In this document: positions 22 to 59,860 of the stretch, piece after piece
How the letters are laid out: the number at the start of each line of letters is the position of its first letter
How positions within the stretch are numbered: position 1 is the stretch's first letter
DNA from: an uncultured Acidobacteriota bacterium
Lineage (GTDB): Bacteria > Acidobacteriota > Thermoanaerobaculia > Multivoradales > JAHEKO01
Direction: 5' to 3'
Assembly (NCBI GenBank): GCA_963713825.1
Contig: CAVQNG010000025.1
Span: 352,001 to 416,000 of the forward strand
Length of the DNA stretch: 64,000 nucleotides
Notes under the pieces: generated by a model
Told to the model about the DNA's origin: nothing
Databases searched by the model: none
The model's input: the letters and a program-made list of their open reading frames with translations, nothing else
Made by a program: the position numbers and the translations under genes

Positions 22-912
22 TTACTGCGGGTTCAGGGTGACGCTGCCGCTGAAGCTCTCGACCCTCACCTGGGCATCGCCCGAGCCGATGGTGAAGTCG
101 AGTCGCTTGCCCGGTGCATAGCGGCTGGTTCTTTCAGCCTCGCCTCCACCGAAACCGTTGTTGATGCTGCCGCTGAAGGTCTCGACCTGAAATCGCGCCG
201 AAGTGTCCGCAGGCAGATTGAGCACTACGCTGCCGCTGTGACTCTCCGCACTCAGGCGAGCGCCAGGTGAGAGGGCTCCGGTGAAGCGGACCGAGCCAGA
301 GACGGCTTCGAAGTCTCCCTGCTCGATGTCGCTGGCTTCCACCCTGATCGAGCCACTCACCGTCGCCGCTTCAACGCGGCCGGCAACGCCGGAAAGCTCG
401 ATCTTGCCGCTGACCGATTCGGCGATGGCCAGGGTCTCTGAGCCGGAGAGCTCGATGCCGCCGCTCACGGTTTCCACGTCGGCACTGCTTGGTGCGCCCT
501 CGACACTGACCTCGCCACTGACGGACTCCAATTCCAACCGACCATTGACCCCGGAGACGCGAATGCTGGCACTGACGGTCTCGACGGCCAAGGAACTTCC
601 GGCTGGCAACCAGATCTCGAGGTCCGAGTCGAGGTCGCGATGGCGCCTGCCGTAGCTGTCAGGGATCTCCACTTCGATATCGAAATTGTCGTTGCTGCCG
701 GAGAAGTCCAGTCCGTCGGTATCGTCGCCAAGGACACCGGTCACCTTGATCTCTTCTCGGTCCCAGCCGTGGATCTTCACCGAGCCGGCGAGATTGTCGA
801 CCTCCACCGTGGGAGTGGCAGAGGCGGACTTGGTCACGTCCACACTTTCGCCGGCCCAGGCAGCGCTGCTTGCCAGCGCGATGGCCATCAGGAACAGTAG
901 TTTGCTTTTCAT
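22..912 (-). CDS. DUF4097-family beta-strand repeat exported protein
   Basis: Signal peptide MKSKLLFLMAIALASSAAWA after an AAGGAGG RBS. Many repeated (E/T)VSG(S/x)I/V beta motifs. Last gene of the ECF operon. Confidence 0.8.
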   Translation of the reverse strand: MKSKLLFLMAIALASSAAWAGESVDVTKSASATPTVEVDNLAGSVKIHGWDREEIKVTGVLGDDTDGLDFSGSNDNFDIEVEIPDSYGRRHRDLDSDLEIWLPAGSSLAVETVSASIRVSGVNGRLELESVSGEVSVEGAPSSADVETVSGGIELSGSETLAIAESVSGKIELSGVAGRVEAATVSGSIRVEASDIEQGDFEAVSGSVRFTGALSPGARLSAESHSGSVVLNLPADTSARFQVETFSGSINNGFGGGEAERTSRYAPGKRLDFTIGSGDAQVRVESFSGSVTLNPQ

Positions 913-47899: not shown

Positions 47900-48310
47900 T
47901 CAGAGCAAGTAGGAAGACAGGAGGGTGTAGCGTCCCAGCTCGTGTCTCTGAGATGCAATGGTCGCATCGGAGCTCACCAGTGGCGCGAGCCACGGCTGGG
48001 GATCGATCGACGTCACCTCGTCTAATAGGAGTGAGGAGGACGGGTCGAATTGAGCGGTCGGAGCCGAATCGATCGGCTCGCGATCGAGCGGAGCCGAGCA
48101 GCAAGCGTTTGCAGCGGGGGCCAAGGACCCCCGATCTGGTGACTCATTGGCTGCATCGTGGCAGCCAGGCATGGAGGCGCCGGTACCGGCCATGGGGCAG
48201 GCAGACATCTGGCAGACGCCCGAGTCCGCGGAGTCACAGCCCCAGGCAACTGGCGAGGACAAGAGAAGCAAGAGTCCCGTCAGAACGTAGATGGTTCTTC
48301 GAGTAAACAT
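47900..48310 (-). CDS. Small Cys/Met/His-rich exported protein upstream of the cus operon
   Basis: Signal peptide followed by C..C...CPM...MPGCH...CC. Same strand as, and directly upstream of, the TolC gene. Confidence 0.6.
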   Translation of the reverse strand: MFTRRTIYVLTGLLLLLSSPVAWGCDSADSGVCQMSACPMAGTGASMPGCHDAANESPDRGSLAPAANACCSAPLDREPIDSAPTAQFDPSSSLLLDEVTSIDPQPWLAPLVSSDATIASQRHELGRYTLLSSYLL

Positions 48311-48480
48311 AGTGATCTTGGTGGACCTTCTGCTCACAAGATAGAGATCCACTCACGATCTGTCAAGCTGGCAGTGCACGGGCCCCCGAGGTGGTACGGT
48401 ATTAGATGGAGCATCTAAAGAGGTCCCTGCCAGGAGTTGCAGGGTCTGATTGAGGAGTCTTGCAAGCCTCGAGGAGGAAG

Positions 48481-49200
48481 ATGATGACGCAGCAAGATCG
48501 ACCAAGATTCACTTATCTGGGGCATGCCACCGTTCGATGTGACCTGCCGGACGGCAAGGTAGTGCTTATCGATCCCTGGGTGCAGGGCAACCCCGCCTGT
48601 CCGGAAGAGCTGAACGAGTTCGAGCGTATCGACGCGATGCTCGTGACCCATGCCCATTTCGACCACATCGGCGATGCGGTGGAATTGGCCGCGCGCTACG
48701 GGCCCGAAATCGTCGTCGCCAACTTCGAGACCTGCCACTGGCTGGAGAGCAAGGGCGTGGCGAACACCTCCGCGATGAACATCGGCGGCAGCCAGGATGT
48801 GCTGGGCTGCAAGGTGACCATGGTCAGGGCCGATCACTCCTGCGGCATCCTGGATGGCGACCAGATTCTCTACGGTGGCACGGCGAGCGGCTACGTCGTC
48901 GAGCTGGCAGGTGGATTCACCTTCTACCATACTGGTGACACGGGACTCTTCTCGGACATGCAACTGATCGCTGAGATGCATCGCCCGGAGCTGGCATTCG
49001 TGCCTATCGGTGACCTGTTCACCATGGGTCCGGAGGCCGCCGCCCGAGCCTGTCGGTTCCTGGAGGCTCGCAAGGTGATTCCGATTCACTGGCAGACCTT
49101 TCCAATCCTTACCGGCACGCCTGTTGAGCTGGAGGAGGCGCTCACCCAGCTCGGCGGGCGCACCGAAGTGATCACTCTGCAGCCCGGTGAGTCCTACTGA
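48481..49200 (+). CDS. Metal-dependent MBL-fold hydrolase (UPF0173-like)
   Basis: YLGHA, IDPW..NP, THAHFDH, YHTGDT and IPIH. GAGGAGG RBS. Confidence 0.9.
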   Translation: MMTQQDRPRFTYLGHATVRCDLPDGKVVLIDPWVQGNPACPEELNEFERIDAMLVTHAHFDHIGDAVELAARYGPEIVVANFETCHWLESKGVANTSAMNIGGSQDVLGCKVTMVRADHSCGILDGDQILYGGTASGYVVELAGGFTFYHTGDTGLFSDMQLIAEMHRPELAFVPIGDLFTMGPEAAARACRFLEARKVIPIHWQTFPILTGTPVELEEALTQLGGRTEVITLQPGESY

Positions 49201-49224
49201 GCCGGATCGGTCTCCCTGACACTG

Positions 49225-49890
49225 ATGCCGACGAGCACTGTCGAGGACTATCTGAAGTGCATCCTGCTGGCTGAGCAGGAGGCACCCGATCAGCCTGTGA
49301 GCACCGGCCAGATCGCGGCCGCACTGGGTGTCGCTCCCGGCACGGTGACGGCGATGCTCAAGACCCTGGCCAACAGCAGTCTGGTGAGCTATGAGCCCTA
49401 TTCTGGGGTGTCCCTCACGGATCCCGGACGTCAGCTGGCGGTGCATGTGCTGCGCCGTCATCGACTGGTAGAGCTGTTTCTGGTTCGGGTCATGGGTCTC
49501 GACTGGGCGGAAGTGCACGACGAAGCGGAGCTGCTGGAGCACGCCGTGTCGGATCGCATCATCGAGCGCATGGATGCCATGCTAGGGGAGCCCGATGTGG
49601 ATCCCCATGGTGACCCGATCCCAACGGCGGGTGGAGAGGTGGAGCATCGAGAGCTGCAGAGCCTGCTCGACTGTCCGCTGGATGTCTGGCTGCAGATCGC
49701 CCGGGTCACCGATCAGACTGCCGACTTCCTCCAGTTGGTGGAGACCGAACATCTGAAGCCCGGTAGCCGGCTCATGGTTACTGGTCGCGACGAGGCCGCC
49801 GACACCATGCAGTTGGAGAGACCCGGGGTGGGGCCGTTGGCGCTGGGCTGGCGAGCGGCTTCCAAGATTCTGGTTGCCGAAAAGCCCTAG
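49225..49890 (+). CDS. DtxR/MntR metal-dependent regulator with FeoA-like domain
   Basis: EDYLK, RRHRLVELFL, VHDEAELLEH and DPHGDPIP. Confidence 0.92.
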   Translation: MPTSTVEDYLKCILLAEQEAPDQPVSTGQIAAALGVAPGTVTAMLKTLANSSLVSYEPYSGVSLTDPGRQLAVHVLRRHRLVELFLVRVMGLDWAEVHDEAELLEHAVSDRIIERMDAMLGEPDVDPHGDPIPTAGGEVEHRELQSLLDCPLDVWLQIARVTDQTADFLQLVETEHLKPGSRLMVTGRDEAADTMQLERPGVGPLALGWRAASKILVAEKP

Positions 49891-49900
49891 CTCACAAGGC

Positions 49901-50893
49901 TCAGAGACGTTCGAGTGGCAGCCAGCGGGCGCGCATCAGCAGGGAGAGACGGGAAGCGGCCCCCAGCTGCGGAGAGTTCAGCCGCAGATCAGCGCCGGCT
50001 TCCTCCAACAGGTTCAGCAGGCGAACTCCTGCCAGGAGCAGGTACTTGCCGCAGCGTCGGTAGTCTGGCGGTAGGTCCGGAACGGCCTGCGCCGATCGCA
50101 GCAGCAGAGGGCGAATCCTGGTGCACTCGGCATGAACGGCTTGGGCGAGGGTTTCGTCGTCTCCTTCTGCTGTCGCCTCCCAGGTCTCTGGTAGCTCGTT
50201 GACAGGGAGCCTGGCCTGGTGCCGCCGGAGATCCTCTCCCAGCATCCGCAACGACAGGATCCGCGACAAGGCAGCCGCCATGGCTTCGAGCGCCGGAGTT
50301 GGCGGGTGGCCGACGAGCACTTCCGCCAGCGCTCCACCCAGCTCGGCACTGTCGCGCTCTGCCGCTTCGGCGGTGGCGGGTCGACGAACCGTGGCTCGGC
50401 GACGAGCGGCGCTGATCAATCGATCGAAGCCGTTGCGCGACCAGGGGATGTGTTGCTCGAGTCGAGCGATCTGGAGGAAGACGGGCTGCCCCTGGGGATC
50501 GCCAGTGAGGGCAGCCTCCAAAGTGAATTCCCAGCGATTGATCTGGGCCAGCCGCTCACCTTCGAGCCCGCCCTGACGAGCGAAATCGAAGAGTGTGAAG
50601 GCGTAGGTGGCGAGCGCCTGTACCCGGCGGCGCTCGGTGCCGGATAGCAGTGTCAGAGCTGGCGCGAAATCGAGAAGAAGTCGCCGGGTGACCTCCGCGC
50701 AGAGGGCTGCCGCCTCGCGAGGATCGCCGCCTTCGAGGGGACGGCTGATCTCGTCGACGAGGCGACTATGGTGGCTGGAGACATAGTCTTCGGCCTGGCG
50801 ACTGACCTCCGGCGGCTTTTCGGCATTGCTGACAGGCCTGCCCGGGGCTTCAGTCAACAGGGATTGTCCCGGCTGTCTTCTGTCCTCGCTCAT
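49901..50893 (-). CDS. Squalene/phytoene synthase-fold protein with degenerate motifs
   Basis: YAF..FDF and L.EDL....RLP positions match the SQS/PSY layout, but the Asp-rich motifs are absent. Confidence 0.65.
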   Translation of the reverse strand: MSEDRRQPGQSLLTEAPGRPVSNAEKPPEVSRQAEDYVSSHHSRLVDEISRPLEGGDPREAAALCAEVTRRLLLDFAPALTLLSGTERRRVQALATYAFTLFDFARQGGLEGERLAQINRWEFTLEAALTGDPQGQPVFLQIARLEQHIPWSRNGFDRLISAARRRATVRRPATAEAAERDSAELGGALAEVLVGHPPTPALEAMAAALSRILSLRMLGEDLRRHQARLPVNELPETWEATAEGDDETLAQAVHAECTRIRPLLLRSAQAVPDLPPDYRRCGKYLLLAGVRLLNLLEEAGADLRLNSPQLGAASRLSLLMRARWLPLERL

Positions 50894-51104
50894 GAGTGAT
50901 GGGGTCCTGAATCGGTCGATCGATCCTAGCAGTCGAAGGCGGCCCGGGGCTCAGATGGTGTCACGTCTTCGGCGATGCAGAGAGATATGGAAATATGGCG
51001 ATTAGATATACTGGCGGCATCTCTTGGGCAGGCGATCCAGGGGCAGTTCCGATGGCTGTGAAGGGCTCCATTCCTGTTCGAAGGACGACTGACTAGATTT
51101 CCAT

Positions 51105-52157
51105 ATGTCGATGGCGAGGCAAGACCGAATCAAGCGTCGCATGATTCGTCAGGTGGTGCGCGACAATCTCGAAACCATCGAGGGAGCTCGCCCCCGACGA
51201 CGGGGACGCCGTCTCCGGACGGTGCTGACCGTGGCTCGGGTACTCTTCCTGGTCGCGCTTCCGGCTGCCCTGTTCACCTCCTCCTACGTCTTGTCGACCG
51301 TGGCCGCCGAGTGGCGGGAAGACGTCTGGTTGGATGGGGCTCAAGGCGCCAGGACCTCCACACAGGCCCCCAGGGTCTTCAGCGAAATGGAGCCGCTGCC
51401 GCCGATCGAGACGGGCCGTTCCCTGGTGACGCCCCAGCCGATCGATCCGTCCGTGCTGCCTCTGGCGCTGCACACCGTGGTGCTGGATCCAGGCCATGGA
51501 GGAGACAACGAAGGAACGGTCTCACCGACAGGCCTCATCGAGAAGGAGATCACACTGGACATCGCCCAGCGCGTCCAGAGCCTGCTCGAGAGCTACTCGT
51601 ACAAGGTCGTGATGACGCGCCGGCGGGATGTCGATTTCTCGCTCAAGCAGCGAGCCGAGTTGGCCAACGAGGCCAGGGGTGACATCTTTGTCTCCATTCA
51701 CGTGAACTGGATCGAAAATCGGGAGGTCCGGGGTGTCGAGACTTTCTTTCTTGGCGCCACCGAGGACCCCTACTTGGAAGCCCTGGCGGCGCGAGAGAAC
51801 CAGAACTCGGGTTACTCGTTGGCCGACTTCCGAGACATCCTGGAGCAGGTCTACGCCGGGGTGAGGCAAGAGGAGTCCCGGCAGTTGGCGGGCGCCATGC
51901 AGCAGGCGCTTTACGAATCGCTGAAGGCCGTGAACTCGAAGGTTCGGGACCGCGGCGTCAAGAGTGCGCCCTTTGGTGTCCTGACCCACACCGAAATGCC
52001 CGCCATCCTGGCCGAGGTCTCTTGTGTGTCCAACGACGTCGAAGCCCGGCTCCTGATGACGCCGATCTACCGTCAGTATCTCGCCGAGGCCATCGTGGAG
52101 GGTATTCAGATCTATGCCCGCAGCCTCGGCCAGTCCAACAACCGCCTCGAGGGTTGA
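51105..52157 (+). CDS. N-acetylmuramoyl-L-alanine amidase (Amidase_3), N-terminally membrane-anchored
   Basis: LDPGHGG, EKE, SIHVN and PAILAE (Zn ligands and catalytic Glu). Arg-rich N-tail followed by a TM helix. Confidence 0.92.
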   Translation: MSMARQDRIKRRMIRQVVRDNLETIEGARPRRRGRRLRTVLTVARVLFLVALPAALFTSSYVLSTVAAEWREDVWLDGAQGARTSTQAPRVFSEMEPLPPIETGRSLVTPQPIDPSVLPLALHTVVLDPGHGGDNEGTVSPTGLIEKEITLDIAQRVQSLLESYSYKVVMTRRRDVDFSLKQRAELANEARGDIFVSIHVNWIENREVRGVETFFLGATEDPYLEALAARENQNSGYSLADFRDILEQVYAGVRQEESRQLAGAMQQALYESLKAVNSKVRDRGVKSAPFGVLTHTEMPAILAEVSCVSNDVEARLLMTPIYRQYLAEAIVEGIQIYARSLGQSNNRLEG

Positions 52158-52160
52158 TCG

Positions 52161-53207
52161 ATGTCCGAAGACACACCAGAGCAGGGAAGCGAGAGGGTGC
52201 TCAATCTGGGAGTCGATTTGGGCACTTCCAGAAGCTCGGTGTCGGCTTCGAACGGCGTCCGCCAGGCGGTTGAAAGCTACGTTGGATGGCCTCTCGACAT
52301 GGTGGCCAGCAAGGTTCTGAAGAGAGATGTGCTGGTGGGGAAGGAGGCGATCGACAATCGCCTGATGCTGGATCTACACCGGCCGTTGGAACGGGGGCTG
52401 ATCAAAGAGGGGTCGGAGAAGGATGTTCTGGCAGTGCGCGAGCTGCTGAAGCATCTGGTCTCGTTGGCCCTGGCGGGGGCTGATCGGGAGAGTCTGCTGA
52501 TCCAAGCCGTGGTTGGCGTTCCGGCGGAGGCCCTGAGAGTCAACAAGCAGCAGCTGCGCAGCGCGCTCAAAGGAATCGTGGACTCGTTGATGATCGTTTC
52601 CGAGCCCTTTGCAGTGGCCTACGGCTTGGAGTCGCTGGTCAACGCATTGATCATCGACATCGGAGCCGGCACAGCGGATTTCTGTGTCATGCACGGCAGG
52701 TACCCTCTAGAGGAGGACCAGCGTACGCTGCCCATCGCCGGCGATCATGTGGACGAGCAGCTCCACCGGCTGATCACCTCCAAGTACCCAGACGCGAAGA
52801 TCTCACTCCACATGGCCCGCGAGTGGAAGGAGAGGTTCAGCTTCATGGGAGAGCCCATCGAGAAGGTATGGATCGTGGCGCCGGTCCAGGGACGCCCCAC
52901 GGAGTTCGACGCAACCGAGCCGATGCGGGCGGCCTGCGAGAGCTTGCTTCCAGCTGTCAGGGAGACCATGCTGGATCTGATTTCGCGGGTGCAGCCCGAG
53001 TATCAGGACAAGGTGCGCAACAACGTGATTCTTTCCGGGGGTAGCGGTCTGATTCGCGGCTTCGGACTGGCCCTGCAGGAAGCCCTCGAGGAAGTTGGCG
53101 GTGGTCGGGTCAGGGTGGTCGCCGACCCTCTCCATGTCGGGGCCGACGGTGGCCTGGCCCTGGCCATGGATGCGCCGCCCTCGGAATGGGACAAAGTGGC
53201 CGCGTGA
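52161..53207 (+). CDS. MamK-like bacterial actin
   Basis: GVDLGTS, VVGVPA, VSEPF, DIGAGT, QPEYQ and SGGS. Length and motifs match MamK as recalled, better than MreB. Confidence 0.85.
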   Translation: MSEDTPEQGSERVLNLGVDLGTSRSSVSASNGVRQAVESYVGWPLDMVASKVLKRDVLVGKEAIDNRLMLDLHRPLERGLIKEGSEKDVLAVRELLKHLVSLALAGADRESLLIQAVVGVPAEALRVNKQQLRSALKGIVDSLMIVSEPFAVAYGLESLVNALIIDIGAGTADFCVMHGRYPLEEDQRTLPIAGDHVDEQLHRLITSKYPDAKISLHMAREWKERFSFMGEPIEKVWIVAPVQGRPTEFDATEPMRAACESLLPAVRETMLDLISRVQPEYQDKVRNNVILSGGSGLIRGFGLALQEALEEVGGGRVRVVADPLHVGADGGLALAMDAPPSEWDKVAA

Positions 53208-53261: not shown

Positions 53262-53303
53262 CCCAGGACCCAGGACCCAGGACCCAGGACCCAGGACCCA
53301 GGA
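53262..53303. repeat. Perfect heptamer tandem repeat (CCCAGGA)x6
   Basis: Read directly from the sequence, between convergent genes. Preceded by inverted variants GGGGCTTGGGACTTGGG. Confidence 0.95.
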
Positions 53304-53321
53304 CCTGGGCTGCCGTCCCGC

Positions 53322-54626
53322 TCAAAGCGGAATCCGAACGATTGCGGGTGGAGGAAAGTCCTCCAGGTCCGCTTCAGCATCGATCGGAGGCGAGGCGGTG
53401 ACGAACACGAAGCCGTCACTGACCGCGCTGGTGTAGGGATCCAAACCCTCCGCAAGGCCGATGTTCAGCTGGTGAAGGTGCGTTGCTTGCCGGCCCGTTG
53501 CATCGAGCTCGATCCACACCACCCGGTTGTTGAGCGAGGGCTGGTTCTGCACCAGGATCAGCCTACCCTCCGCCCAACTCAAGCCGTCAGCCGAGACCAG
53601 TGTGAGATCGCCTTGCGGAACGACTCGCTCGACCGCACCTGTGGCCGCATCAATGGCGGAAAGTCCCTCTGCGTGGGCGACGTAGATGGTCCGCCCATCG
53701 CCGGAGGCTGCAATGCCGTTGGCGAAACCGAACTGGGGGAGCTCGAGGAAGATCTCCAGTGCTTCGGCCCCGGGCGGTAACCGATAGAGCTTCCCGGCGA
53801 GGCTCTCGGTGAGCCAGGCAGTTCCGTCGGGAGTGACAACCACGTCATTGACCAGCAGGATCTGATCGGTGTCCGGAACCGGATATCGAGCCACGAGCTC
53901 ACCGGTATCGACGTTGTAGCGCACGAGCTCGGCGGGATGTGTCATCTCCGCCATCGAGGTCGAGCCTGAAGCGGCCCAGAGCTCTCGGCTGTCAGCATCG
54001 ACCCACATCCCGAGGACTGCGCCGAGACCGTCGTTCGCCGAATCGCCAAGGTCGGAAACGGTTCCATCCGGAGAGATGCGGACGATCTTGCGCAGCAGAA
54101 AGCTGCCGGTGAACAGGTCGTCGGTAACGGCATCCCAGGCGATTCCTTCAGGAGAGAGCCTCTTTTCATCGAATGTAACGAAGACCTCGGCGGGCTCCTG
54201 CGGTTCGCCGTTGGCCCGGATCTGGTCGGCCACCCGAGCGAAGTCTGGATGATCCAGCAGTGGCTCGAAGATGGGCTGGTCGAGCTGTGTGGTCGTGCCT
54301 CCAAGACGGCCCAGAGTAGACAAGTGAGCGACGGCTTCGTCCAGCTGCCCGAGCCGGACCTCGACCTCGGCAATGCGCTCGTAGACAATCGGGTGCTCGG
54401 GGGCCACAGCCAGGGCCTCGAGATAGATCTGGTGCGCCGACTCCCAGTCCTCTTCGGCTTTGGCTTGTCTGACATCCTGGCCGAGGACTGCGAGATTGGT
54501 GGTCCTGGTCTCGGCTACCGGAGCCGTCTCCGGGGTACGGGGCGGTTCGGGTTGTGGACTCGAATCGGAGCAGCCGTGAGTCAGTAGAGTCAGGGCGATC
54601 AGGGTAGGTCCGAAACCTCGCAGCAT
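53322..54626 (-). CDS. Lipoprotein with TPR and SMP-30/gluconolactonase-like beta-propeller
   Basis: LTHGC lipobox. PEGIAWD, NDVVV, ANGIA and ADGL motifs. Confidence 0.8.
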   Translation of the reverse strand: MLRGFGPTLIALTLLTHGCSDSSPQPEPPRTPETAPVAETRTTNLAVLGQDVRQAKAEEDWESAHQIYLEALAVAPEHPIVYERIAEVEVRLGQLDEAVAHLSTLGRLGGTTTQLDQPIFEPLLDHPDFARVADQIRANGEPQEPAEVFVTFDEKRLSPEGIAWDAVTDDLFTGSFLLRKIVRISPDGTVSDLGDSANDGLGAVLGMWVDADSRELWAASGSTSMAEMTHPAELVRYNVDTGELVARYPVPDTDQILLVNDVVVTPDGTAWLTESLAGKLYRLPPGAEALEIFLELPQFGFANGIAASGDGRTIYVAHAEGLSAIDAATGAVERVVPQGDLTLVSADGLSWAEGRLILVQNQPSLNNRVVWIELDATGRQATHLHQLNIGLAEGLDPYTSAVSDGFVFVTASPPIDAEADLEDFPPPAIVRIPL

Positions 54627-54721
54627 CGACTTTCCCTCTTCAGTGTTGACCTGAGTACGGTCTCGGCTCAGTCTGGTTTCGTCTGAGGATACAGTGAGCC
54701 CCCTTCGAAATCGCCTCTGAG

Positions 54722-56146
54722 CTAGGGAACGACTGCCGACCAGTAGCGCCAATCCCCTGATTCGAAGCCATCCCCGAAGATCACCGCGATGCCCTCGTAC
54801 ATCCCGATGTCGACCGTCCCGTTGATGATTCGGGGTGTGCCGTCGAAATCGGCGACACCAAGACCACCCGGCGGATCGTTATCGCCAGCGTCCTCGGCAG
54901 GTGAGCCGGGCTCCAGATGGTAATCGAGGTTTTCCGGATCGGTAAAGAGTGGATCGAGACCGATCAGATTGGCACCGTCGTCCAATCTGGCCGACGCCTC
55001 CAGGTCCACCAGGTTGCCGAAGGAGATCGTGTTGTAGAGGCTGATGTCGCCAAACTCGTAGATCGCCAGATGCAGCCCGGTATCCGTGTGGTCGGCTGCG
55101 GTGAGGTTCGTCAGGTGAATCTGCCCCGAGTCGATCACATAGGCATACACACCGTCGGATTCGCCCTGGGCAATTCCCGAGTCCCTCACGGTTATTGTCG
55201 AGACGTCCGTCGCCATGGCTCTGAGCTGAGAGCCCCCTGCGGCCCCCGTTGCGGTATTGAGCATGACTCCTGTTCGTTCGATCACGGCGACAGCAGATTG
55301 TGAAGATTCAATGCTCAAGCCGGAAGCAACCCTGACATCTCCGATTGCCGTGTTGTTGAAGATTCGCGAGTCCAGAAGTCGACCCTGGGCGAAGTGTTCC
55401 GTCCTTAGATAAACCCCACCTCCCAGGGCATCATCGCCACCGGGATTCTCAATGCTGTTGCCGTCGAACTGAGAGTCTTCGACAGTAAAATGGGCGTTGC
55501 CACCAGCCATGATCGAGAGACCGGCTCCATAGACCGCAGCCTGATTGCGGCTGATCGCCAGGTTCTGTTGGGCGACCAGGTTACTGATTTCCAGGCTCTC
55601 ATCGCCGTCGATATCCGCACTCACGCCACCACCATGAACCGAGCCCGATGAAATCGACGTATTGCCGATCACCTGCAGGTTCTCGAGCTCGACACGTGCA
55701 CCGCCTTCGAGAAGAATCTGGATTCCGGCCCCTTTCTCCGCCTGCCCATTGGTGACGGTGAAGCCCTTCAGCAAGAGCTCACCTCCGTCAATACGAACCC
55801 TCGCTACCGCATTCTCCTCACCGCCGTCGATCACTGTCGTGGTCGGGTCGTTGTCCCTTGTCGAGAAAGGGCAATCCCAGCCACCCGTCATCTCGACCCT
55901 CCCGGCATCGAAGGTCTTTGGGAAGAGAAGATTCTCCTCGTATGTGGAGTTACCCTGGATCCTTATCTCGGTGTCGTCACCTACGACCAACGCATCGATA
56001 GCATCCTGGATATCGTCGTAGGTGCCACACGTCCCTACCGTGGAGATCGTTGTCTGAGCGACTGAGCCCACCGGCAGCAGGACCAGCAGAAGGCCACATA
56101 GGCCGAAACTCGACAGACACGTCCGATTCTTGATTGCCGATTTCAT
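54722..56146 (-). CDS. Secreted right-handed beta-helix protein with C-terminal IFGDGFESGD motif
   Basis: YDDIQDAI, TVIDG, GGG/N-rich repeats, DYHL..GSPA.DAG...DIGMYE and the IFGDGFESGD tail. Confidence 0.8.
   Translation of the reverse strand: MKSAIKNRTCLSSFGLCGLLLVLLPVGSVAQTTISTVGTCGTYDDIQDAIDALVVGDDTEIRIQGNSTYEENLLFPKTFDAGRVEMTGGWDCPFSTRDNDPTTTVIDGGEENAVARVRIDGGELLLKGFTVTNGQAEKGAGIQILLEGGARVELENLQVIGNTSISSGSVHGGGVSADIDGDESLEISNLVAQQNLAISRNQAAVYGAGLSIMAGGNAHFTVEDSQFDGNSIENPGGDDALGGGVYLRTEHFAQGRLLDSRIFNNTAIGDVRVASGLSIESSQSAVAVIERTGVMLNTATGAAGGSQLRAMATDVSTITVRDSGIAQGESDGVYAYVIDSGQIHLTNLTAADHTDTGLHLAIYEFGDISLYNTISFGNLVDLEASARLDDGANLIGLDPLFTDPENLDYHLEPGSPAEDAGDNDPPGGLGVADFDGTPRIINGTVDIGMYEGIAVIFGDGFESGDWRYWSAVVP

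Positions 56147-56181: not shown

Positions 56182-59860
<3,679 letters not shown>

Follow-up and report, generated by a model that had tools for sequence, protein, structure and literature searches.

The window analysed here, a stretch of 64,000 nt from contig CAVQNG010000025.1 of an uncultured Acidobacteriota bacterium, contains two neighbouring plus-strand genes that encode a peptidoglycan amidase with a single hydrophobic segment near its N-terminus and an actin-like ATPase related to MamK. Sequence analysis and comparison with relatives revealed a common domain architecture, intact catalytic and ATPase residues, strict co-occurrence of the two genes, a conserved N-terminal tail on the amidase and a separate clade for the actin. 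Coordinates are positions in the window, and amidase residues are numbered from the open reading frame (ORF) that begins at 51105 unless marked as counted from 51111.

An amidase gene and an actin gene in close succession

An earlier note on this DNA had described the two genes as a self-contained unit, spaced 3 nt apart and flanked on both sides by genes on the opposite strand. The ORF list confirms this layout (Table 1), with a GAGGG Shine-Dalgarno (SD)-like word lying 7 nt ahead of the actin ATG. The amidase start given in that note holds as the start of the ORF; the true start, however, may be at 51111 (MARQ...), six bases later, because it is the second ATG that matches the first residue of the orthologues. 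Among 19 relatives, the starts of which were refined by a heuristic, the stop-to-start gap was −4 to +5 nt in 14 (full range −29 to +102 nt). Between the two genes, a consensus scan detected nothing that resembles a terminator; the sole site that it returned lies inside the amidase gene, and the count was not above that in shuffled sequences. It is the short distance of 3 nt, the SD-like word within the end of the amidase gene and this lack of an intervening terminator-like site that suggest co-transcription of the pair. The 211-nt spacer 5' of the amidase gene presumably holds the promoter; a consensus scan of this spacer returned zero sigma-70-type sites. In five metatranscriptome runs, the share of the window's words that was present amounted to 0.07–0.17. 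The GC content of the amidase-actin region (0.61–0.64) is like that of its surroundings. Open frames of 670–720 aa near some actin matches in other genomes had suggested a fusion of the two genes, a possibility that was discarded when refined coordinates gave separate, overlapping or abutting genes.

The earlier note had also recognized an Amidase_3 domain with an AmiA/B/C-like regulatory insert, marked by the motif LAAREN, and this assignment is borne out by Pfam, by alignment and by structure comparison. The alignment with Escherichia coli AmiA spans the regulatory insert and pairs, in sequence, the Glu of LAAREN with AmiA Glu167, and an Ile, Leu, Val, Tyr and Val of the amidase with AmiA L184, L185, V188, L189 and L192, respectively. 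According to excerpts of the AmiA study, Glu167 is the zinc latch and the five hydrophobic residues form the interaction helix that binds the LytM activator (PMC10268282). An AlphaFold2 model of the amidase, built with 19 orthologues in the alignment and numbered from 51111, reached a mean predicted local distance difference test (pLDDT) value of 77.6 and comprises a helix (residues 2–23), a loop, a long helix (33–72), a disordered region (73–112) and the catalytic domain from about residue 120. With this model as a query, Foldseek returned E. coli AmiA as the top match (8c2o; E 1.2e-19, template modelling [TM] score 0.85 on the target), followed by AmiC (4bin), AmiB (3ne8) and other Amidase_3 enzymes. 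The zinc ligands and catalytic residues H129, E144, H197 and E302, as well as the latch pair E229-N230 (all from 51111), are invariant in the 19 orthologues.

Judging from its sequence, we read the amidase as a working, auto-inhibited and activator-dependent enzyme. As the latch Glu and the hydrophobic interaction helix are retained, it probably still needs a LytM-type activator; seven Peptidase_M23 proteins are encoded in the genome, none of them near the amidase-actin pair. The amidase misses the NCBIfam equivalog cut-offs for AmiA (104, cut-off 400), AmiC (99, cut-off 700) and AmiB (84, cut-off 532) and does not reach that for CwlD either. Pfam detected no AMIN domain in it, and an isolated 80-aa query for the insert gave zero matches among PDB sequences.

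The product of the second gene had been called a MamK-like actin, and the NCBIfam scores agree, with 375.3 bits for MamK (NF040964, cut-off 400), 201.2 bits for BeeR (cut-off 530) and 55.3 bits for MreB (cut-off 293). The MamK cut-off is not reached by this actin and is straddled by representatives of its clade (P0121, 393; P0122, 425). Its best solved relative is MamK (5ljw; E 5.2e-79, residues 11–345), with 8r2n (E 1.5e-39) and then MreB (1e-10) following. The nucleotide-binding motifs D19/G21/T22 and D166/G168/G170/T171 are invariant in 20 sequences, as is E148, the Glu of the SEPF motif. By position in the alignment, E148 corresponds to MamK E143, which has a role in the ATPase.

A canonical MreB is encoded separately in the same genome (Pfam MreB_Mbl, 484.6 bits), and so is a separate 509-aa Amidase_3 protein. 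Since the genome thus has its own MreB, a second amidase and the seven Peptidase_M23 genes, the pair is an additional module, and division does not depend on its amidase as the sole one. The Pfam-scanned flanking genes, which encode OEP efflux, MBL-fold hydrolase, DtxR-type regulator, SQS_PSY-like, TPR/SGL, beta-helix and LigA proteins, include no magnetosome-type gene, a scan that covered neither a 150-aa ORF at 47900–48352 nor the whole genome. Where the actin and TPR/SGL genes converge, six tandem CCAGGAC heptamers lie in the spacer (53263–53304).

Table 1. Positions of the amidase-actin pair, of the elements within it and of its immediate flanks
Feature	Position	Strand	Description
Amidase gene	51105..52157	+	350 aa; 348 aa possible from second ATG at 51111; ORF list
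Conserved cytoplasmic amphipathic helix	51114..51185	+	ORF residues 4–27; core M-I-R-Q-V-V-R-D-N-L; predicted actin-binding element
Polybasic stretch	51186..51239	+	ORF residues 28–45, just ahead of the hydrophobic segment
Hydrophobic segment	51240..51308	+	ORF residues 46–68; probable single N-in transmembrane anchor; inside AlphaFold2 helix 33–72
Variable Pro/Ala-rich periplasmic linker	51309..51476	+	ORF residues 69–124; poorly conserved in alignment
Amidase_3 catalytic domain	51477..52109	+	ORF residues 125–335; Pfam E 5.8e-49
AmiA/B/C-type regulatory insert	51753..51869	+	ORF residues ~217–255; blocking-helix Glu (LAAREN) and interaction helix; AmiA alignment
Junction	52149..52157	+	GAGGG SD-like word 52149–52153 inside amidase 3' end; stop TGA 52155–52157
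Actin gene	52161..53207	+	348 aa; MamK-clade actin-like ATPase
Predicted tail-binding actin residues	126, 129–130, 133, 143–146, 154, 157, 159–160, 179–181, 334, 337–339, 342, 345–346	+	Complex model
Upstream spacer	50894..51104	.	211 nt; divergent from SQS_PSY-like gene
Left flanking gene, SQS_PSY-like	49901–50893	-	Pfam
Right flanking gene, TPR plus SGL	53322–54752	-	Pfam

Conservation and phylogeny of the pair

Conservation of the gene neighbourhood had been named in the earlier note as the first check on the proposed link between the two genes, and the adjacency proved to be maintained wherever it could be followed. Among 40 relatives from the same order, representing 12 families, 35 encode the actin (E <= 2.5e-98), and in 35 of these 35 the amidase gene immediately precedes that of the actin in the same orientation; one of these genomes (G006) is unpublished, and without it the count is 34 of 34. 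Both genes are absent from four of the 40 (G016, G019, G001 and G005). Of these, G016 and G019 (96% and 98% complete, two contigs each) have kept MreB and a longer AmiC-like paralogue and lack the pair. A relative that is 61% complete has an N-terminal fragment of the amidase only, at a contig end.

The same picture emerged from wider searches. A pattern scan of 185,579 species genomes identified at least 578 with a relative of the actin; of the best 80 of these named-genome loci (61–77% identity), 79 have the amidase upstream, and the other one has no room upstream. All 80 come from metagenome-assembled genomes. In an even sample of 300 other Acidobacteriota genomes, the actin was found in 24, mostly from the window's class plus three other families, and all 17 newly fetched Acidobacteriota loci are paired. 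In a second phylum (that of G337, labelled Candidatus Rokubacteria), 13 of 150 other genomes encode the actin, and all 13 loci are paired, each with the tail motif and a hydrophobic stretch. A scan of metagenome contigs yielded another 53 loci with the pair, at about 50% identity, besides 13 in which the contig leaves no room upstream. The pairing is far beyond chance and held in every examined genome or contig with room upstream of the actin. The counts do not represent independent events, because the sets overlap and the genomes are related.

In addition, the two proteins vary together, as the identities of amidase and actin correlate across 126 pairs (Spearman 0.60). A query with the 70-aa tail matched 13 of the 300 genomes sampled from the phylum. 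Each of these 13 encodes the actin, and the 276 actin-negative genomes gave no match; the query is of limited sensitivity, as it missed the rest of the 24 genomes with the actin. In one genome the amidase is spread over two contigs (G030:C77 and G030:C24), the catalytic part beside the actin and the N-terminal part elsewhere, most likely owing to an assembly break.

Neighbouring genes were counted after a gene call guided by the GC content of third codon positions (GC3), which replaced a six-frame clustering that was swamped by antisense shadow ORFs. Seven of 117 loci, in which the actin remained uncalled, were dropped, leaving 110. No third conserved gene emerged, as no further family occurs in more than 19 of the 110 loci, and the strands of the flanking genes vary among them. 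LigA lies directly 3' of the actin in 18 of the 110; in the window, the 3 kb from the actin to the downstream LigA gene (56188–58479) contain the TPR/SGL and beta-helix genes, both on the minus strand. In 15 of the 110 loci (L098:1337-2833 and 14 others), the gene immediately ahead of the pair, in the same orientation, encodes a 498-aa PilZ-domain protein, which the window lacks. As a PilZ-type third partner elsewhere in the window's genome, only a weak, unlinked candidate came up (G000:C25:802885-804501), about 400 kb away and without a Pfam match, and it was rejected. Upstream of the pair, the plus strand of the window (48460–49890) also encodes an MBL-fold hydrolase, together with a metal regulator of the DtxR family that has a FeoA-like C-terminus; a relative of this regulator lies upstream in 10 of the 110 loci.

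From a library of 1.84 billion representatives, 181 clusters matched the actin at E <= 1e-30. A quick maximum-likelihood tree was calculated from 82 rows, among which the MreB of this genome served as a long-branch outgroup. In it, a single clade (Shimodaira-Hasegawa-like approximate likelihood-ratio test [SH-aLRT] 99) contains all 31 verified amidase-linked actins and three representatives whose gene context is unknown. A different clade includes the representative with a score of 508 bits on the MamK model. By sequence, the actin is a dedicated member of a distinct clade within the MamK-like superfamily. At starred nodes, actins from the second phylum are intermingled with acidobacterial ones, and the pair has therefore probably moved between phyla as a unit. 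Among the other MamK-like representatives, P0133-P0156, P0162, P0174, P0177 and P0195 include many proteins of 523–1232 aa with a C-terminal MamK-like domain behind a long Glu/Lys/Pro-rich extension without a Pfam match; an N-terminal word, KKDRFREWTKSLGES, is conserved in most of those read, and they fall mostly into one starred clade.

The amidase N-terminus and its predicted contact with the actin

For the region ahead of the catalytic domain, the earlier note had proposed an Arg-rich cytoplasmic tail, one transmembrane helix and a linker. Statistics over 117 orthologous tails match this layout: between the tail motif and the hydrophobic stretch there is a median of 7 basic residues and 1 acidic residue, the uncharged stretch has a median length of 19 residues (range 15–35), and the linker has one of 47 (range 29–89). 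The polybasic stretch ahead of the hydrophobic segment fits the positive-inside rule. In the AlphaFold2 model, the tail helix (residues 2–23) was predicted with pLDDT values of 72–84; the linker region (73–112) has values of 45–58 and is devoid of secondary structure. One orthologue (L031; G023:C5) carries a long, helical-looking Ala/Glu/Arg-rich insertion in the linker, by which its tblastn match is split in two.

The tail is the best-conserved stretch of the N-terminal half of the amidase in the alignment, with the consensus R-[VLI]-K-R-[RQ]-L-L-R-x-A-V-x-[ED]-N-[LV]-[DE]-x-[IL]-x-G, the Asn of which is invariant among the 19 orthologues. A loose pattern for the tail core was found in 103 of 107 complete upstream regions, compared to 765 of 21400 shuffles (3.6%); among the four tails that miss the core pattern, at least one has a Met variant. 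Positions outside the search pattern are conserved as well (K in 92, R in 80 and G in 83 of the 103). The consensus for twin-arginine translocation (Tat) signals, [ST]RRx[FLIVM][LIVM], fits 1 of the 117 tails, and no conserved cleavage motif was seen in the alignment. As far as computation tells, the helix conserved across phyla and the near-lack of Tat consensus sequences support the view, taken in the earlier note, that the N-terminus is an anchor and not a disposable Tat signal. We infer an N-in topology without cleavage, which would leave the conserved helix in the cytoplasm.

The suggestion that this tail could couple the amidase to the actin likewise found support in complex prediction. 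With the actin alignment and amidase tail residues 1–36 as input, three runs gave interaction prediction scores from aligned errors (ipSAE) of 0.83, 0.82 and 0.84, compared to 0.01, 0.00 and 0.00 for three controls. These scores pass a mark that is also reached by 58 of 80 solved complexes and by 2 of 110 mismatched pairs, as calibrated for alignments other than the self-made ones used here. At least 82% of the contacts are shared among the runs, and the partner pLDDT is at least 69. In the model, tail residues 4–25 contact actin residues 126–133, 143–146, 154–160, 179–181 and 334–346, and the invariant tail Asn contacts actin 143–145 with the least expected error. We read this site, from sequence positions, as a groove between actin subdomains IA and IIA. 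The predicted interface residues of the actin are better conserved than the rest (mean top-residue frequency 0.86 compared to 0.76 in 126 sequences); R126, R133, R180 and D337 are nearly invariant, and MamK has A, L, T and E in these positions. The model predicts that the amidase tail helix docks onto the actin; a score above the mark counts as support for binding and not as a demonstration of it.

A proposed mechanism, its alternatives and related systems

We consider it probable, with some reserve, that the pair constitutes an actin-tethered, auto-inhibited amidase, the site of action of which is set from the cytoplasm. In this model, a conserved two-gene module that travels between lineages as a unit would provide an amidase anchored in the inner membrane through a single hydrophobic segment near its N-terminus. 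The N-terminus would stay inside the cell, and a flexible linker of about 50 residues would let the catalytic domain reach peptidoglycan. A conserved cytoplasmic helix of about 25 residues would dock in the actin groove, and a nucleotide-driven cytoplasmic actin polymer would keep the amidase in place, gather it into clusters or carry it along the membrane. The position set by the polymer would then fix where stem peptides leave the wall. The cellular process served may be cell separation, shape or some local opening of the wall.

Several points weigh against this picture. The evidence for the module is wholly computational, and polymerisation of this actin clade would have to be granted. AmiA and AmiC of E. 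coli are Tat substrates; a plain twin Arg precedes the hydrophobic stretch in 88 of the 117 tails, small residues often follow that stretch, and an uncharged stretch with a median of only 19 residues is short. The common twin Arg and the trailing small residues leave room for signal-peptide cleavage. The use of self-made alignments places the complex prediction outside the predictor's calibration, and its score may be inflated by likeness to solved actin-helix complexes, of which ParM-ParR and actin-WH2 are examples. According to excerpts of the AmiA study, Asp135 is a zinc ligand in the resting state (PMC10268282). The position of this Asp is occupied by an invariant Asn in the amidase family (N199 from 51111; window ~51705–51707). 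Finally, excerpts of the BeeR study describe a filament in which subdomains Ib and IIb of one subunit touch subdomain IIa of its neighbour (PMC11929497). Because subunit contacts in BeeR involve IIa, the tail might bind only monomers or filament ends.

This last point leads to the alternative that survives best, rather unlikely in our estimate, in which the actin does bind the tail but serves the amidase as a regulator or holdase instead of a track. By capping the N-terminus, actin monomers or filament ends would control whether the amidase is inserted into the membrane, exported, stabilised or activated, in a way that resembles the action of dedicated chaperones on Tat signal peptides. The predicted groove may indeed serve subunit contacts in filaments, the twin Arg near the hydrophobic stretch is frequent, and tight translational coupling would suit a stoichiometric partner. 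Nevertheless, the nucleotide-binding and ATPase motifs of a polymerising actin are invariant, the closest solved relative, MamK, forms filaments, and the Tat-type consensus fits a single tail.

Control might also run in the reverse direction, with the amidase domain gripping the wall and anchoring the filament to the sacculus, so that the filament positions some other cytoplasmic item. The same predicted tail-actin link would serve this arrangement, and MamK relatives are known for cargo positioning. We regard it as quite unlikely, given that invariance of all zinc, catalytic and latch residues in different phyla points to an enzyme that works and is regulated, and that no conserved third gene lies nearby as a possible cargo.

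The two proteins could, moreover, be co-regulated operon neighbours without contact, adjacent on account of a shared need, for example during division. Gene order by itself is no proof of contact, and LigA and the PilZ protein are also syntenic in subsets of loci. Strict co-presence and co-absence, joint transfer between phyla, a conserved cytoplasmic amidase helix without other evident use and the high complex score beside null controls make this improbable. That the N-terminus is a cleaved Tat or Sec signal, releasing a mature amidase that is soluble in the periplasm like E. coli AmiA, appears very improbable: the frequent twin Arg, the short uncharged stretch, the small residues that often come next and the Tat dependence of AmiA and AmiC fit it, but in two phyla conservation within the N-terminal half is highest ahead of the hydrophobic segment, all but one of the tails depart from the Tat consensus, no conserved cleavage motif was seen, and the predicted binding partner of the helix is a cytoplasmic protein, the product of the adjacent gene.

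The actin-tethered amidase that we favour would combine traits of several known systems. In MreB-RodZ, the bitopic N-in protein RodZ binds the actin via its cytoplasmic N-terminus and links it to periplasmic wall enzymes, and the predicted arrangement here would likewise tie a cytoplasmic actin to a periplasmic wall enzyme through a bitopic N-in protein. While RodZ is a non-enzyme with a helix-turn-helix domain, the present pair has a single-helix tail on the hydrolase itself, and its actin, at 55 bits on the MreB model (cut-off 293), occurs in a genome with its own MreB. In ParM-ParR, a short helix of ParR enters the actin groove between subdomains IA and IIA; the predicted tail site lies, by sequence position, in the equivalent region. 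ParR, however, is a DNA-binding adaptor at filament ends and has no sequence relation to the amidase tail. FtsEX-EnvC-AmiA/AmiB shares with the pair the type of amidase domain, the blocking-helix Glu and the interaction helix, as well as the principle that a cytoplasmic ATPase ultimately governs a periplasmic amidase. There, the E. coli amidase is soluble and the signal passes via FtsX and EnvC, whereas the amidase here would span the membrane, with an actin in place of an ATP-binding cassette (ABC) ATPase as its partner; in addition, it lacks the AMIN domain of AmiB and AmiC.

MamK of Magnetospirillum (5ljw, 5ljv and 5jyg), the closest solved relative, matches the same family-level hidden Markov model (HMM) and shares the idea of membrane cargo held via a partner; in the MamK/MamJ system, as described in excerpts of the source, the actin holds membrane-bound cargo through the partner protein (PMC10653835). 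In contrast to MamK, the actin of the pair stays below the 400-bit cut-off and outside the clade of the 508-bit representative, differs in groove residues R126, R133, R180 and D337, and is partnered with a wall hydrolase instead of an acidic adaptor such as MamJ. BeeR, a tubular actin of Verrucomicrobiota to which we assign 8r2n, is likewise a MamK relative from non-magnetotactic bacteria; the present actin reaches 201 bits on the BeeR model (cut-off 530), and the excerpts of the BeeR study mention no amidase partner (PMC11929497). A chromosomal ParM of Clostridium, which excerpts of the source report to have a sporulation amidase among its neighbours, represents a different system (PMC12270681).

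A sister clade of the actin may extend these relations. It is represented by four mutually related metagenome loci (L164:1767-2954, L165:33-653, L166:270-1679 and L167:1735-2877), the actins of which have 39–41% identity to that of the window and no associated amidase. In all four, the directly upstream same-strand gene encodes a protein without a Pfam match that has a Pro-rich region and a hydrophobic segment ahead of a C-terminal tail; a candidate N-terminal signal is present in three of the four, and extra hydrophobic stretches were flagged in L166 and L167. The C-terminal tail, which would also be cytoplasmic, contains the loose amidase-tail pattern in four of four, for example as A-V-L-R-S-V-F-E-D-N-L-K-L. 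A shared tail motif in these partners did not hold up as a candidate when a profile of 94 unique amidase tails was used, which gave no significant match (L165, E 1.5; L166, E 9.4; L164 and L167 not among the top matches). The likeness, seen in sequence, is suggestive only and serves as a lead. It is a tentative thought, and in our view a doubtful one, that the amidase pair is the commonest case of a broader group of systems, with MamK-like actins in non-magnetic bacteria taking hold of bitopic envelope proteins via a short, portable cytoplasmic helix. Such a helix would consist of a hydrophobic pair, two residues, a second hydrophobic pair, two residues, Asn and Leu, and would precede the anchor in the amidase and follow it in the four sister-clade loci. 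If this were true, MamK-like actins would be general inside-to-outside positioners of periplasmic functions, and the module would have moved between phyla whole.

Where wall hydrolases cut is a long-standing question, and the known answers are indirect relays, such as FtsEX-EnvC, NlpD and the action of MreB on synthases via RodZ. As judged by titles and the openings of abstracts, the literature search returned no description of a pair of MamK-like actin and amidase. Relatives of the actin are named "rod shape-determining protein MreB" in public records (Thermoanaerobaculia, Acidobacteriota), a widespread misannotation that would be corrected. The proposed model is directly testable, as it involves two small proteins and one point mutation. 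If it is true, no link between cytoskeleton and hydrolase known so far would be as direct as this hydrolase bound to an actin of its own, and the MamK-like actins of non-magnetic bacteria would gain a function. The module is common among uncultured lineages of sediment and soil, with a relative of the actin in at least 578 species genomes, and its recurrence in hundreds of uncultured, apparently non-magnetic bacteria suggests an undescribed way in which the choice of the wall-cutting site is made from inside the cell.

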